A DNA stretch of 64,000 bases from Acidimicrobiales bacterium (GTDB lineage: Bacteria > Actinomycetota > Acidimicrobiia > Acidimicrobiales > Aldehydirespiratoraceae). This document shows positions 54,414 through 63,619 of this stretch, one piece after another. The notes beneath the pieces are model-generated. The model was not told the origin of the DNA and searched no databases. It saw nothing but the letters and a program-made list of their open reading frames with translations. Every line of letters starts with the position of its first letter. The first letter of the stretch is position 1. Where the stretch lies: the NCBI GenBank assembly GCA_963422745.1, contig OY730477.1, forward strand, positions 2,232,880 through 2,296,879, written 5' to 3'. The translations under genes were made by a program, and so were the position numbers.

Positions 54414-54479
54414 ACATACCCTGAGCCCCCCGGCTCAAAGCGCCTTCGAAGTCCACTAGTTGATTCGGTAGTTGCCAGC

Positions 54480-54534
54480 TGCTTGTAAGCCGGTGGGGTC
54501 CGGGTTATTGTACACGGTTCAGGGGGGACTTGTT
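54480..54534 (+). promoter_or_regulatory. conserved leader/promoter region upstream of the PLA2-lectin gene (copy B)
   Basis: gccggtggggtccgggttattgtacacggttcaggggggacttgttATG; compare 7676..7725. Confidence 0.35.
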
Positions 54535-55878
54535 ATGGAAAAGCGTTGGTTGGCGTGGTTTGTTGTTGTGGGGGTGTGCTTCGGGGTGTGGAGTGTTGGC
54601 GAAGCCCATCCGGTCTCGGCGGCCGACACTGACTCAGCGGAGTCCGAAACCGTTGTCTCGCAGAGCGCGTCGGGCCCAGCTTCGGACAGTATTGACGGAA
54701 CATCACCCGGTGAGGTTCCTGATCTGAGTGTCACCCAGCGTGGCTGCCAGCGCGATGAAAGCCCGCATGCATATTACAATCGGTGTGTTCCCTGGTTTTG
54801 CCAGTACGGACGCAGCAGCGATGGTACGTGCGAACCGGACTCTCCGTCCTTGCGCTATCACCGTTTAACCTGCAGTTCCTACAGCACCGACGCCGACGCG
54901 GCGGCCTACCTTGACATGGATCCCGACCACAAGAATGACCGGGCTGTCTGCCCGCCTCCGGGATTGTTCCTCGCCAGCCCCGGTACCGACGACTGGCCGG
55001 TATGGGGCTTCGAGAAGAGCATCGCCGATGATTACGGAAAGGTCGTGGTCGAAAAGTCCGGTGAATGCAGCGGACCTGCGGACAGCTTGGGTCTGGACTT
55101 TCTCGATACCGGTCCAACCTGGGATTTCCAGATACCGTGTAAGGCGCATGATCACTGCTTTGATCTTATCAGAGCCGGATTATCCGGAACCGTTTCTAGC
55201 CGGGATTGTGACGCACGGATGAATGATCTCATGAAAGCCGACTGCAACAACCGACGTGGAATAGACAAATCCGGTTGCAATAGGGTACGGAAGGGGGTGC
55301 GAATTGGTGTGTGGCTTTCTAGTGTTGGTCCTGATCCGGGGCTTGTGAGGTTGGTGAATGACGGGTCCGGTATGTGCGCCGATATCGATCGTTCTGTGCT
55401 TCCGAACGGTCAACTCTCCGACGGTCTCGACGACGGCACGGTACTGTTGCAATGGCCATGCCGAGTGTTCAGCGCGGAGAATCAACAGTTCCGCCTGCGG
55501 CCATCCACTCACCGGGGCTACTTCGAGATCCGGCCCGAGCATTCAATTCATCTCGACAAATGCATCACAGCTGTTGCAACAACCCTCGTTCTGGCAACCT
55601 GCGAAAGACAAGTCAAGTGGTTTTCATTCAGTCAGGAAATACCTTCAGCTCCAGCTCAATCATTCAAGGTCACCTCTGTTGCCAACAGCGACCGGTATAT
55701 TTTCACAAGCAGGGCCCATGAGAAAGCCTGCTGGGCAGTACCATCAATCAACGGGACCGCCACACGCGGAAGCGGAACCTACATACCCGGAAAAGGAACC
55801 GCATTACTTGCAACATACTGTACCGATAGCTATCTCGATCAATACCAAATATGGAGAATCGAAAATGCCAATTCATAA
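54535..55878 (+). CDS. secreted PLA2-like / ricin-B-lectin protein, copy B (candidate toxin)
   Basis: Signal peptide MEKRWLAWFVVVGVCFGVWSVGEAHPVSA. GECSGPAD...WDFQIPCKAHDHCFDLIRAGLSGTVSSRDCDARMNDLMKADC lines up with the prokaryotic PLA2 segments (C-x-x-x-P-D ... C-x-x-H-D-x-x-[YF] ... D-x-x-[FM]-x-x-[DL]-M); His-Asp codons at 55147..55152. The C-terminal beta-trefoil has NQQFRL / AQSFKV / QYQIWRI. Confidence 0.8.
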   Translation: MEKRWLAWFVVVGVCFGVWSVGEAHPVSAADTDSAESETVVSQSASGPASDSIDGTSPGEVPDLSVTQRGCQRDESPHAYYNRCVPWFCQYGRSSDGTCEPDSPSLRYHRLTCSSYSTDADAAAYLDMDPDHKNDRAVCPPPGLFLASPGTDDWPVWGFEKSIADDYGKVVVEKSGECSGPADSLGLDFLDTGPTWDFQIPCKAHDHCFDLIRAGLSGTVSSRDCDARMNDLMKADCNNRRGIDKSGCNRVRKGVRIGVWLSSVGPDPGLVRLVNDGSGMCADIDRSVLPNGQLSDGLDDGTVLLQWPCRVFSAENQQFRLRPSTHRGYFEIRPEHSIHLDKCITAVATTLVLATCERQVKWFSFSQEIPSAPAQSFKVTSVANSDRYIFTSRAHEKACWAVPSINGTATRGSGTYIPGKGTALLATYCTDSYLDQYQIWRIENANS

Positions 55879-56596
55879 ACGCTGCATACCCCTTGGAGCT
55901 GTGCTGATCATTGCGCTGATAGCTACGGGATGTGGCGCTAGCTCGGAAGTAGTGCAGACAACTGCAGAACCAACGGAAACCGAAATCATCGCCACCACCA
56001 CGATAGCGGTACCTTCAAGCACCACGATATCTTCTACAACTGTTACACCGCAGCCTGGCGTGACTATGCCAACCCCGACTGTCACAACCACCACATCCGG
56101 TCCGTCCAGCACCCTCCCGGCCACAACCGTAACAACATCAGAACCTGAAGAGATGGAACCATATGTATTGCATGAGTTCTTCACAACCAATCCCATCGAC
56201 CGTTCCACTCCGAGCGGTACATTTTGCTGGGCGATTTGGGAACGGTCGAGAATGCACGCAATCAGCGGATTCGAGGTGTTTTTTGCCGAACACCCGAGAC
56301 AAGAAATAATTTATCCAGCAGATTACGATCACGACTACACTCTTATCGTTGCGCTGAAAGAGATGTCCAAACCGGAAATGGTCAGTATCGCCGATGATCC
56401 ACAGCTCTCCAAGGAATTTCAACGCCTCGCCAAAGTCTTCTTTGAACAAGTGCGAACTGAAATTGAACTACTAGAAGAGATAGGACCTGATGGACTAGAT
56501 TACGCCAATTATCCCTTCTTTGAGATTGAAGATTCACCATTCGACAAAGCCCTCTTTGAAGGAGAAACTAACTCAGACGAATGCTACCAACTCTAG
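55865..56596 (+). CDS. lipoprotein B1 (cassette lipoprotein family)
   Basis: MPIHKRCIPLGAVLIIALIATGCGAS (lipobox), then the conserved C-domain. The ATG lies 14 nt inside the toxin-B ORF (..atggagaatcgaaaATGccaattcaTAA). Confidence 0.85.
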   Translation: MPIHKRCIPLGAVLIIALIATGCGASSEVVQTTAEPTETEIIATTTIAVPSSTTISSTTVTPQPGVTMPTPTVTTTTSGPSSTLPATTVTTSEPEEMEPYVLHEFFTTNPIDRSTPSGTFCWAIWERSRMHAISGFEVFFAEHPRQEIIYPADYDHDYTLIVALKEMSKPEMVSIADDPQLSKEFQRLAKVFFEQVRTEIELLEEIGPDGLDYANYPFFEIEDSPFDKALFEGETNSDECYQL

Positions 56597-56642
56597 CTAG
56601 CAGACGACTCAACCATTACCATTGATCATTGCCCCGACAAAT

Positions 56643-57383
56643 ATGCCAACTCATAAACATTACATACTGCTTGGAGCTGTGCTGATCATTGCGTTGCTGG
56701 GTTCTGGATGTGGCTCCGGCTCCGAAGTACAGACAACTGCAGAAACAACGGCAACCGAAATCATCGCCACCACCACGATAGCGGTACCGTCAACTACGAC
56801 TATATCTACTACAACTGTTACACCGCAGCCTGGCGTGACTGTGCCAACCCCGACTATCACAACCACCACATCCGGTCCGTCCAGCACCCTCCCGGCCACA
56901 ACCGTTACAATATCAGAACCTGGGGAGATGGAACCATATGTATTGGATGAGTTCTTCACAACCAATCGCCTCGACCGTTCCACTCCGAGCGGCACACTTT
57001 GCTGGGCGATTTGGGAATGGTCGAGAATGCACACAATCACCGGACTCGAGGTGTTGTTTGCCGAACACCCGAGACAAGAAATAATTTATCCAGCAGATTA
57101 CGATCACGAATACACCCTTATCGTTGCGCTGAAAGAGATGTCCACACCGGAAATGGTCAGCATCGCCGATGACCCACAGCTCTCCAAGGAATTTCAACTC
57201 CTCGCCAAAGCCTTCTTTGAACAAGTGAGAACTGACATTAAACGACTAGAAGAGATAGGACCTGACGGACTAGATTTCGACAATTTTCCTTTCTTTGAGC
57301 TTGAAGACATGCCATTCCTACAAACCCTCTATGAAGGAGAAGCTAACTCAGACGAATGCTCCTCTCCCGAATCCAACGATTAG
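56643..57383 (+). CDS. lipoprotein B2 (cassette lipoprotein family)
   Basis: MPTHKHYILLGAVLIIALLGSGCGSGS, then DRSTPSGTLCWAIWEWSRMH...YPADYDHEYTLIVALKEMSTPEMVSIADDPQ. Confidence 0.85.
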   Translation: MPTHKHYILLGAVLIIALLGSGCGSGSEVQTTAETTATEIIATTTIAVPSTTTISTTTVTPQPGVTVPTPTITTTTSGPSSTLPATTVTISEPGEMEPYVLDEFFTTNRLDRSTPSGTLCWAIWEWSRMHTITGLEVLFAEHPRQEIIYPADYDHEYTLIVALKEMSTPEMVSIADDPQLSKEFQLLAKAFFEQVRTDIKRLEEIGPDGLDFDNFPFFELEDMPFLQTLYEGEANSDECSSPESND

Positions 57384-62506: not shown

Positions 62507-62557
62507 CTCTAGCCAGCATACGACTGAACCATTGCCGAGATGATTGCTCCGAAAAAT

Positions 62558-63298
62558 ATGCCAATTCATAAACGCTATATCCTCCCTGGAGCTGTGCTGA
62601 TCATTGCATTGCTCGGTTCTGGATGTAGCTCGGACTCCAAAGAAGAGACAAACGAAGTAGAGACAATAGCAGAACCAACGGAAACTGAAATTACTGTGAC
62701 CACGATAGCGGTACCGTCAAGTACAACTATATCTACTACAACTGTGACACCGCAGACTGGCGTAACTATGCCAACCCAGACCGTCACAACCACCACGTCC
62801 AGTCCGTCCAGCACCCTCTCGACCACAACCGTAACAACATCAGAAACATCGGAGAGGGAGCCATATGTATTGGATGAGTTCTTCATAGTCAATCCCATCG
62901 ACCGTTCCACTCCGATCGGTACAATTTGCTGGGCGATGTGGGAATGGGTGAGAATGCACGGAATCACCGGACTCGAGGTGTCGTTTGCCGAAGATCCGAG
63001 AATTCAAATAATATATCCAGCAGATTACGATCACGACTACACCCTTATCGCAGCGCTGAAAGAGATATCCAAACCGGAAATGGTCAGTATCGCCAATGAC
63101 CCACAGCTCTCCAAGGAATTTCAACTCCTCGCCAAGGTCTTCTTTGAACAGGTGCGAACTGACATTAAACTAATAGAAGAGATAGCACCCGATGGACTAG
63201 ATTACGCCAATTATCCTTTCTCTGAGCTTGAAGACATGCCATTCCTACAATCCTATTATGAAGATACAGATGCCCCATTCCCATGCGCCTCTCTCTAG
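62558..63298 (+). CDS. lipoprotein C3 (cassette lipoprotein family)
   Basis: MPIHKRYILPGAVLIIALLGSGCSSDS. ATG 62540 is an alternative start. Near-identical to B3. Confidence 0.85.
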   Translation: MPIHKRYILPGAVLIIALLGSGCSSDSKEETNEVETIAEPTETEITVTTIAVPSSTTISTTTVTPQTGVTMPTQTVTTTTSSPSSTLSTTTVTTSETSEREPYVLDEFFIVNPIDRSTPIGTICWAMWEWVRMHGITGLEVSFAEDPRIQIIYPADYDHDYTLIAALKEISKPEMVSIANDPQLSKEFQLLAKVFFEQVRTDIKLIEEIAPDGLDYANYPFSELEDMPFLQSYYEDTDAPFPCASL

Positions 63299-63345
63299 CT
63301 AGCAGACGACTGAGCCATTACCATTGATCATTGCTCCAAAAAAAT

Positions 63346-63486
63346 ATGCCCACACTTAGACACTACATACTGCCTGGAGCTGTGCTGATCATTGCGTTGC
63401 TGGGTTCTGGATGTGGCTCCGGCTCCGAAGTAGTACAGACAACTACAGAAACAACGGAAACCGAAGTCACTGCCACCATCCACTAG
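63346..63486 (+). pseudogene. 5' fragment (46 codons) of a fourth C-array lipoprotein gene, truncated at the island edge
   Basis: MPTLRHYILPGAVLIIALLGSGCGSGSEVVQTTTETTETEVTATIH*. Homologous to the B4 5' end. It stops in CACTAG of the 13-bp junction repeat. Confidence 0.75.
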
Positions 63487-63619
63487 TTGATCCTCTACAC
63501 ATAACCCGCCCTCGCTCAAGCTGCGCTTCTGCGAGACTGGAACCACAGTCGTGACCAACAGCGGCGAACTGCCAATGAATGCAAACTTACGGGCTGATCG
63601 CGGCGATCGGCCCCGAGAA

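Follow-up and report, generated by a model that had tools for sequence, protein, structure and literature searches.

A predicted secreted phospholipase A2-lectin protein and its downstream lipoprotein arrays in Acidimicrobiales: a candidate toxin-immunity pairing

The DNA analyzed here is a stretch of 64,000 nucleotides (nt) from an Acidimicrobiales bacterium of the Aldehydirespiratoraceae (assembly GCA_963422745.1, contig OY730477.1, positions 2,232,880 to 2,296,879), in the following called the window; all positions below are positions within it. Listing of open reading frames (ORFs), together with hidden Markov model (HMM) scans of the six-frame translation, identified three cassettes on the plus strand, A (7726-11872), B (54535-59104) and C (59670-63486). 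Each cassette contains one gene for a secreted protein of about 450 amino acids (aa), predicted to combine a phospholipase A2 (PLA2)-like core with a ricin-type lectin, and then lipoprotein paralogs on the same strand (3+4+3 = 10). We discuss the two partners as a candidate toxin with candidate immunity proteins, and in anticipation of this interpretation the large protein is called the toxin throughout. The features of the cassettes are as follows.

7726-7790 (+): remnant of the toxin A signal peptide (MKKRWSAWAVVVAVCFGVG...); its ATG at 7726 is in the frame of ORF 7636-8070 and out of frame with the mature part
7737-9131 (+): toxin A, PLA2-like core and ricin beta-trefoil (HMM E 4e-214); frameshifted, with Cys243 changed to Tyr and a hydrophobic insertion
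9124-9822 (+): lipoprotein A1 (HMM E 5.5e-63), overlapping the toxin A stop by 8 nt
9836-10060 (+): toxin 3' remnant (last trefoil repeat) before A2, toxin HMM positions 434-503, E 4e-21
10053-10817 (+): lipoprotein A2 (HMM E 2.4e-71)
10847-11002 (+): second toxin 3' remnant (..YQIWRIRNV) before A3, E 1.8e-8
10995-11708 (+): lipoprotein A3, the paralog nearest to the two lipoproteins of the Acidimicrobiales sequence OY730440
11729-11872 (+): C-terminal fragment of a further lipoprotein, HMM positions 103-151, E 5.7e-11
54535-55878 (+): toxin B, with Sec signal, acidic linker, four-cysteine (4-Cys) module, PLA2-like core and ricin beta-trefoil (PF14200 E 4e-8)
55865-56596 (+): lipoprotein B1, overlapping the toxin B stop by 14 nt
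56643-57383 (+): lipoprotein B2, from ORF and HMM
57429-58172 (+): lipoprotein B3, C-domain 98% identical to that of C3
58257-58967 (+): lipoprotein B4, start codon lost by a frameshift in the signal-peptide region
~59013-59104 (+): frameshifted signal-peptide fragment of a fifth B lipoprotein, adjoining degenerate 3' copies of a thiamine pyrophosphate (TPP)-enzyme gene at the duplication junction
59670-61022 (+): toxin C, the reference copy (PF14200 E 1.3e-9)
61009-61746 (+): lipoprotein C1, sharing 14 nt with the end of the toxin C gene; nowhere do B and C diverge more than in its C-domain
61778-62506 (+): lipoprotein C2, from ORF and HMM
62558-63298 (+): lipoprotein C3, from ORF and HMM
63346-63486 (+): N-terminal fragment of a fourth C lipoprotein (signal peptide, lipobox and start of the linker), 97% identical to the 5' end of B4

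In all three cassettes, the stop of the toxin gene overlaps the start of the first lipoprotein gene by 8-14 nt, and such an overlap is also seen at the locus L001. Toxins B and C are 83-84% identical to each other and 61-64% identical to toxin A. The lipoprotein paralogs are recognized with HMM E-values of 1e-63 to 1e-72, i.e., not by chance. A scan for promoters and terminators gave a single informative result, a promoter-like site at 59618-59647 ahead of toxin C, and scanning the window for Rfam families and tRNAs gave no matches.

A preliminary description of this DNA, made from the nucleotide sequence and its ORF translations, had located copies of the large protein at 54535-55878 and 59670-61022, and ORFs are present at both positions. 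The third copy that it listed, at 7726-9131, exists as well but is not one ORF. The interval comprises 1406 nt, which is not a multiple of three, and the signal peptide and the mature ORF lie in different frames, so that a frameshift has to be assumed. Comparison with copy C indicates a -1 frameshift, with an inferred loss of 1 nt near 7777-7790. The predicted Sec signal peptide is present in toxins B and C, and in another frame in A. The toxin A sequence occurs identically in an independent Logan contig (L003). The ten lipoprotein genes had all been called intact; ten paralogs were recovered, but only nine are clearly intact, as B4 lacks an ATG and is probably a pseudogene or an assembly error. 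The three lipoprotein fragments that had been noted were found at 11729-11872, ~59013-59104 and 63346-63486, and in addition to these we found the two toxin 3' remnants at 9836-10060 and 10847-11002.

In the residue numbering of toxin C, the protein consists of a signal peptide (1-~29), a 4-Cys module (~77-105), the PLA2-like core (105-272) and the ricin trefoil (~275-450). A C-x-x-H-D segment, three Q-x-F/W repeats, an acidic low-complexity stretch and the 4-Cys module are common to all three copies. The 4-Cys module (C-x(8-12)-C-x3-C-x(8-10)-C, or 'CP.GQ......C.P..C..GR...G.C'; ~59898-59985 in toxin C) has no Pfam family. It occurs once per window toxin and in up to ~10 repeats in homologs (P0008, P0009), and there is a His-rich variant at the loci L006 and L007. 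The C-terminal lectin had been predicted from its repeats (NQQFRL, AQSFK, QYQIWRI), which are visible as Q-x-W-like motifs. In fact, PF14200 (RicinB_lectin_2) was the sole Pfam match on the full-length protein, with 39.1 and 34.2 bits against a cut-off of 25.6, and the trefoil fold was confirmed with Foldseek: this part of the AlphaFold2 model (predicted local distance difference test, pLDDT, 76-88) matched botulinum HA33/HA17, mosquitocidal MTX and fungal lectins with a Foldseek probability of 1.0. The PLA2-plus-ricin architecture recurs in the wider family, where some members also carry Fn3 domains.

Assignment of the core to the PLA2 superfamily is transitive: the core profile leads to 186 relatives, and the profile of these relatives matches solved structures of secreted PLA2s (sPLA2s). 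On the full-length toxin, PF09056 (Pfam gathering cut-off 29.4 bits) gave no match at E ≤ 1, and phmmer gave no match in the PDB. With the isolated core (105-272 of copy C), PF09056 was the top match (15.5 bits, E 0.026). It was matched by five of nine family members (best E 0.0022), and two other PLA2 Pfam families appeared at E ~0.04. A profile of nine core sequences had the Streptomyces violaceoruber PLA2 1faz as its best PDB match (E 0.042). When 1.84 billion representative sequences were scanned with the core profile in HMMER, 186 relatives were obtained at E ≤ 1e-3 and 44 at E ≤ 1e-30, and of 154 relatives, 150 carry C-x-x-H-D-[YHF]-[CG]-[YFW]-D-L. When 61 diverse segments of the PLA2 part were combined in a profile, it matched 1faz (8.3e-13), Tuber borchii 4aup (5.3e-12), 7ygk (7.3e-10) and 8k1w (2.7e-9) in the PDB, and a conservative profile limited to the 22 closest sequences still reached microbial sPLA2 at 5.8e-8. 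Individually, 58 of the 61 segments match PF09056, and some wider-family members exceed its cut-off (P0064 with 36.4, P0102 with 31.1 and P0035 with 29.5 bits). The expected link to PF09056 held: the window proteins stay below the cut-off, but the family is the top match of the isolated domain and is supported via the wider-family profile.

At the residue level, the segment proposed earlier as the catalytic His-Asp dyad does align with it in the profile searches. The invariant H211-D212 (within PCKAHDHC in toxin B) correspond to the catalytic H64-D65 of the S. violaceoruber enzyme, and the downstream segment 'DCD..M..LM.ADC' aligns to D85...C96 of the same enzyme. D232, equivalent to D85, is present in all three window copies and is replaced by His in P0004 and P0006. 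C184, C208, C243 and C254, which do not vary across the wider family, match the four cysteines of 1faz, except that copy A has Tyr in place of Cys243. A further pair, C214/C231, is specific to the family, and both of its cysteines are lost together in distant members with 'HDYGYDL'. The motifs of the polymorphic-toxin domain Tox-PLA2, D-x-C-[ST] and C-x-x-H-x-x-x-Y-x-N, are not found as such, as the window has S-G-E-C-S and CKAHDHCFDL; in S-G-E-C-S, Gly at -2 is invariant, position -1 is Glu or Asp, and the [ST] after the Cys is retained. Foldseek with the whole toxin model returned trefoil matches only, the list being dominated by the trefoil. From these sequence comparisons, the core belongs to the superfamily of microbial secreted PLA2s (group XIV/Tox-PLA2) as a divergent member, and we are confident that the large protein as a whole is a secreted protein combining a PLA2-superfamily domain with a ricin lectin.

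Two side observations concern the same domain. Toxin A (8315-8408, ~31 codons) and P0004 have a hydrophobic insertion of ~30 residues (TIAMAIGLEIIFPWGLGSILAFLAENNDVIL) that follows the PDTG loop and precedes the catalytic helix, and other relatives have hydrophobic insertions after helix 2; besides toxin A, insertions were noted in P0004, P0007 and P0027. Such insertions may be membrane-insertion or interfacial loops. The 1281-aa protein P0143 contains RHS repeats and ends in this PLA2-like domain (residues 1184-1275), so that here the domain is used as in polymorphic toxins.

The lipoproteins conform to what had been described, a lipobox, a Thr/Pro-rich linker and a C-domain of ~150 aa. Nine of the ten paralogs, B4 without its start codon being the tenth, combine a basic N-terminus with a hydrophobic core and the lipobox-like sequence [LI][GAS][STI][GA]C and are predicted lipoproteins; the lipobox Cys is kept in all homologs, distant ones included. 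The linker comprises 58-77 aa, 52-64% of them Thr, Pro or Ser, and is followed by a C-domain of 148-157 aa that is 35-98% identical between paralogs. Invariant C-domain positions include N16, S21-T22-P23, G25, C28-W29-A30, E33, D62, E91 and C147. Its two invariant cysteines may form a disulfide, as would suit a domain located outside the cytoplasm. The C-domain could be assigned to no named family: there was no Pfam, NCBIfam or PDB-sequence relative. An AlphaFold2 model, built from a 12-sequence alignment, is helical (pLDDT 74.9, predicted template modeling score 0.72; helices 23-48, 67-84 and 90-113) and Foldseek found nothing similar to it in the PDB (best E 2.3, TM-score ≤0.33). A similarity of C-domain residues 3-35 (e.g., 56925-57023) to the 48-residue chain 9q73_B ('MIF4G domain-containing protein'; E 0.015, shared 'TP.G.LCWA') was set aside as probably due to chance.

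Cassettes B and C are colinear, with 86.5% identity over 3.86 kb, and are a tandem duplication. The spacer segments 59106-59252 and 59571-59614 match 54064-54506, and the DNA after cassette C (63481-63644) matches 59245-59418; they hold degenerate copies of the 3' end of the TPP-enzyme gene and of the region upstream of toxin B. As the DNA between the cassettes holds pieces of the TPP-enzyme gene that precedes cassette B, the duplicated unit must have included flanking sequence. In cassette A, each orphan lipoprotein gene is preceded by a toxin 3' remnant, which indicates duplication of whole units with later deletion of the toxins. Divergence between B and C is uneven. At the DNA level, the C-domain of the toxin-proximal lipoprotein is the least conserved part (64-71% identity), a further dip occurs in the third PLA2 helix of the toxin (78%), and identity is 86-100% elsewhere, with B3 and C3 97-100% identical along the alignment. 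GC content at third codon positions is 0.45-0.52 in the lipoprotein C-domains, 0.58 in the toxins and 0.68-0.74 in flanking genes. Pairwise ratios of nonsynonymous to synonymous substitution rates (dN/dS) are 0.6-1.1 for recent lipoprotein paralogs; between toxins B and C, the ratio is 0.43 overall, but only ~0.02-0.3 for the catalytic core as against ~1 for the C-terminal half.

In order to see how far the two genes stay together, other genomes and metagenomes were searched. In a word-indexed collection of 5.8 billion clusters, a first search yielded 10 toxins and 4 lipoproteins, and a repeat with the C-domain alignment raised the latter to 13, so that 10 toxin and 13 lipoprotein matches were obtained, all on the same few genomes. 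Both families are very rare in this collection. In the first search, low-complexity linkers had swamped the candidates, and the full HMMER scan was needed to reach the 186-member PLA2 family. Toxin and lipoprotein are linked in at least four Acidimicrobiales genomes or contigs and in about seven more distant metagenome loci. The linkage is kept in OY730440 and OZ241886 ('Ca. Aldehydirespiratoraceae', two loci), both Acidimicrobiales metagenome-assembled genomes (MAGs), and in ERZ26050812. Downstream of the toxin homolog, there are two lipoprotein homologs at L001/L005 and at L002, and one at L006. At L007, the toxin homolog is followed by one lipoprotein, a transposase-like ORF and another lipoprotein. 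The interruption, at 12769-14005 on the minus strand of this Ca. Aldehydirespiratoraceae MAG locus, is a pair of transposase-like ORFs between the two lipoprotein genes, which may be an IS630-type DDE transposase.

A metagenome scan with the PLA2 motif produced 80 loci. At L008, L009, L010, L011, L014, L022 (identical to L025-27) and L031, a lipoprotein gene lies directly downstream, its product having the N..(S)TP.G.LCW..E motif and a C-terminal Cys. Beyond the lipobox, the TP.G.LCW motif and this Cys, the distant lipoproteins are hardly recognizable: their E-values range from 2e-10 to marginal (0.0087-0.0095 for L008 and L011), L010 is identified by its motif only, and five of them became clear after iteration. 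Absence of such linkage elsewhere had been named as an outcome that would speak against pairing, and in fact every locus of the toxin's own subclade with enough downstream sequence has the pair. More distant PLA2 homologs are followed, ~10-40 nt downstream, by a small polytopic membrane protein with 3-6 predicted transmembrane segments (L018/L019, L020, L017, L023, L029, L047). The proteins at L018 and L020 are homologs of one another, and these membrane proteins may be alternative immunity families. The census of downstream partners used a crude hydropathy and lipobox heuristic, with the best-scoring start chosen, and its counts are indicative only. With a lipoprotein in the toxin's subclade and a polytopic protein or no obvious partner elsewhere, the partner is conserved within the subclade, and other envelope proteins take its place outside it.

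The checkable parts of the earlier interpretation all held. On balance, we lean towards reading the cassettes as a PLA2 toxin, exported via Sec and guided by its lectin, together with lipoproteins that are tethered to the membrane and serve as immunity proteins or inhibitors; that the toxin is catalytically active, which cells it targets, and that the lipoproteins bind it and protect the producer is what we infer. The large protein would leave the cell via Sec, and its lectin would attach the enzyme to glycans on the surface of the cell under attack, either a competing bacterium or a eukaryote, where the PLA2 would hydrolyze membrane phospholipids. Exported in this way, the PLA2 would fold right at the outside of the cytoplasmic membrane of the cell that makes it. 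The lipoprotein from the translationally coupled gene downstream would be anchored on the same side of this membrane, its ~70-residue Thr/Pro-rich stalk presenting the novel helical, disulfide-stabilized C-domain, which may bind the PLA2 and neutralize it, in the role of immunity protein or inhibitor. Additional paralogs would then represent immunity genes that are orphaned or have diversified, derived from tandem duplication of toxin-lipoprotein units with subsequent toxin loss, and could broaden protection against related toxins from kin.

What favors the immunity interpretation is the tight coupling of the two genes, the deep conservation of the pair, the turnover of partners between clades, the use of the domain in an Rhs protein, the signatures of a conflict locus, and the fact that the PLA2 would appear exactly where the lipoprotein is anchored. 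Partner turnover would be expected if different immunity families served one membrane-acting toxin fold. The signs of a conflict locus are the toxin remnants before orphan lipoproteins, the ratio of 10 lipoprotein genes to 3 toxins, the atypical GC content at third codon positions, the high dN/dS of the paralogs, and the peak of divergence at B1/C1. The rarity of both families and their restriction to the same genomes also favor coupling. There are precedents as well, both for transmembrane or lipoprotein immunity proteins that stop Sec-secreted, lipid-targeting toxins outside Gram-positive cells and for lectin-guided toxins in Actinobacteria.

Several observations weigh against this interpretation. 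The window cores score only 15.5-16.6 bits with PF09056 (E 0.012-0.026), below its cut-off. Calcium binding and PLA2 activity are uncertain from the sequence, because G-E-C replaces D-x-C and F..L replaces Y.N. The catalytic part of the AlphaFold2 model has a pLDDT of ~60-72 (~56-72 for the helices 205-219, 228-244 and 248-265), i.e., only moderate confidence. About half of the distant PLA2 loci have no obvious envelope partner in the heuristic survey. High dN/dS also fits relaxed constraint on decaying duplicates, and copy A and B4 are already damaged. S. violaceoruber PLA2 is not known to need an immunity protein, and a long glycosylatable stalk is atypical among known immunity proteins.

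The downstream position and helical C-domain of the lipoproteins raise the question of whether they are membrane-anchored steric chaperones or foldases, which would fold or release the disulfide-rich PLA2 without inhibiting it. Lif, the lipase-specific precedent, is encoded directly downstream of its lipase and is membrane-anchored, with a variable Pro/Ala-rich linker and an all-helical C-domain. The lipoproteins of the window resemble it in their predicted helical C-domain, in the linker that tethers this domain and in their translational coupling to the toxin. They have no sequence or fold similarity to Lipase_chap (Lif, PF03280) or another family, however, and homologous microbial sPLA2s fold without a partner. 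Nor would a dedicated foldase be expected to occur as 3-4 diverging paralogs per enzyme, with orphans that outlive toxin loss. Paralog dN/dS values of 0.6-1.1 and the unrelated polytopic partners, or none, in other clades of the same PLA2 family also speak against a foldase, which we consider unlikely.

The genes around the cassettes bear on a second alternative. Among 20 flanking ORFs scanned, the products are metabolic or transport-related (an IclR regulator, a cytochrome P450, a short-chain dehydrogenase/reductase, a sulfatase, a peptide ATP-binding cassette transporter, a nitrilase and the TPP enzyme). No PAAR, VgrG, LXG/WXG, Rhs or two-partner secretion (TPS) marker was detected on the toxin or among these ORFs. 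The toxin comprises just a Sec signal, the 4-Cys module, the PLA2 core and the ricin domain. This agrees with the preliminary description, which had reported no T6SS, T7SS/LXG, Rhs or CDI marker. Given such surroundings, the cassettes could be a co-inherited island without direct interaction of its products: a nutritional or scavenging exoenzyme with its ricin domain as a CBM13-type module, next to lipoproteins of unrelated envelope function. Ricin/CBM13 domains are common on actinobacterial secreted hydrolases, and a xylanase was among the Foldseek matches of the toxin. Mere co-inheritance does not account for the overlap of start and stop codons, for the persistence of linkage across very divergent loci while both partners evolve fast, or for the orphan arrays and toxin remnants. 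In addition, the search of the word-indexed collection found no lipoprotein homolog in a genome or contig without a toxin. We regard this explanation as improbable.

Some of the neighboring ORFs are of interest in their own right. Just upstream of cassette A (6047-7627, +) lies a gene for an Acyl_transf_3 membrane acyltransferase (PF01757) with ankyrin repeats inserted in a loop; these repeats resemble eukaryotic proteins and have often been reported from symbionts of sponges. A 755-aa sulfatase (PF00884) is encoded between the cassettes (14696-16963, +). The sulfatase and the ankyrin gene hint at a host-associated or marine polysaccharide-degrading lifestyle, and the Aldehydirespiratoraceae include both sponge-symbiotic and free-living lineages. 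Farther on (21657-24167, -), an 836-aa ORF has three RNA-polymerase alpha carboxy-terminal domain-like domains and a helix-hairpin-helix; it is partly encoded by ~268-bp tandem DNA repeats (23341-24146) that are 89-93% identical, with a local GC dip to 0.537.

This setting suits another possibility, namely that the lipoproteins are stalked surface docks or receptors that hold the lectin-PLA2 protein on the producer, where it would serve contact-dependent attack, adhesion or an association with a eukaryotic host, e.g., a sponge. The linker of 58-77 aa, Thr/Pro/Ser-rich and possibly O-glycosylated, could span the wall, the toxin carries a lectin, the relatives are Acidimicrobiales from a family that includes sponge symbionts, and the ankyrin-repeat and sulfatase genes are nearby. 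Glycosylation and lectin specificity are suppositions only, and the conserved part of the lipoprotein is the C-domain and not the stalk. A docking role also leaves unexplained why paralogs diversify fastest beside the toxin and why polytopic membrane proteins take the place of the lipoproteins in other clades; its probability is low in our estimate. Going one step further, the lipoprotein arrays might be a diversified, wall-spanning surface repertoire of a new fold that captures the lectin-PLA2 protein, making it a Sec-only, surface-displayed phospholipase for cell contact. The partner could then be a eukaryotic host, for example sponge cells, with PLA2 products acting on host membranes or lipid signaling. 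We think this improbable as well. Paralog arrays and partner turnover fit the foldase, docking and co-inheritance explanations less well than they fit the immunity interpretation.

If the immunity interpretation is true, the lipoproteins would be the first candidate family of immunity proteins or proteinaceous inhibitors for microbial secreted PLA2s, possibly with a new fold. What is known of antagonism in Actinobacteriota would then be extended by a lectin-guided phospholipase toxin that is independent of a secretion system. Its carriers belong to uncultured Acidimicrobiia from marine or sponge-associated settings, on whose interactions very little has been described. The toxin-lipoprotein pair is small and cloneable, so that the hypothesis is directly testable.

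Among known systems, the effectors of type VI secretion systems (T6SS) with Tle toxins and Tli immunity proteins share a phospholipid-degrading toxin (predicted here) and an adjacent gene for an envelope lipoprotein, often amplified in tandem. Tle proteins have alpha/beta-hydrolase or phospholipase D folds and are delivered by the T6SS in diderms, whereas the window encodes a PLA2 with Sec-only export in a presumably monoderm actinobacterium, and in Pfam and NCBIfam searches its lipoproteins have no similarity to Tli families. Classification as Tle/Tli was therefore rejected, because the fold is different and there is no T6SS. Lif/LipB proteins share the gene position directly downstream of a secreted lipolytic enzyme, the membrane anchor, the flexible linker and a helical domain; the lipoproteins differ from them in sequence and fold and in the several diverging paralogs and orphans per enzyme.

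For TelC-TipC and for Sec-secreted lipocone toxins, transmembrane or lipoprotein immunity proteins have been described that act outside the Gram-positive membrane (PMC6193138, PMC12419801). Common features are the lipid-targeting toxin, the membrane-tethered partner and the two-gene layout of signal-peptide toxin and immunity protein (immunity being conjectural here). The toxin fold differs, the immunity fold is different and without a match, and TelC is exported by a type VII secretion system. In the Streptomyces umbrella toxin particles, lectin domains that recognize surface glycopolymers guide a secreted actinobacterial toxin, as they would do here. These particles are assembled from several proteins, with ALF repeats and with the lectins on subunits of their own, in contrast to the single polypeptide with its own lectin and no Umb genes in the window.

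Microbial sPLA2s (group XIV; PF09056; 1faz/1lwb/1kp4; Tuber borchii TbSP1, 4aup) share with the window toxins C-x-x-H-D, D232 (D85), the four aligned disulfide cysteines, Sec export and the three core helices (predicted here). The window toxins remain below the Pfam threshold and have the extra Cys pair C214/C231, G-E-C instead of D-L-C before the first Cys, and F/L instead of Y/N after the His. Their Ca-loop region has an 8-residue insert or, in copy A, 30 extra hydrophobic residues, and they add a conserved ~75-aa N-terminal extension, the 4-Cys module and the C-terminal lectin. The widespread Tox-PLA2 was described in 2012 as a polymorphic-toxin domain, with no immunity family assigned (Zhang et al., PMC3482391); in that survey its export was given as 'T2SS' (type II secretion system, with Sec signal), and some examples were fused to RHS repeats (PMC3482391). 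Our literature search found no report of a Tox-PLA2 immunity partner after this 2012 census. The use of the PLA2 fold as a toxin is shared, as is the RHS fusion, which is present in P0143 of the wider family. The window toxins differ in having a conserved downstream lipoprotein family, in having no filamentous or Rhs N-terminal region, and in that their C-terminal part is the lectin and not the toxin domain. The PLA2 toxin domain and the general logic of a toxin with a lipoprotein immunity protein are thus already known. New are the lipoprotein family without relatives or fold match and its pairing with Tox-PLA2, the fusion of the lectin in one chain combined with export by Sec alone, and the occurrence in Acidimicrobiia that are uncultured.

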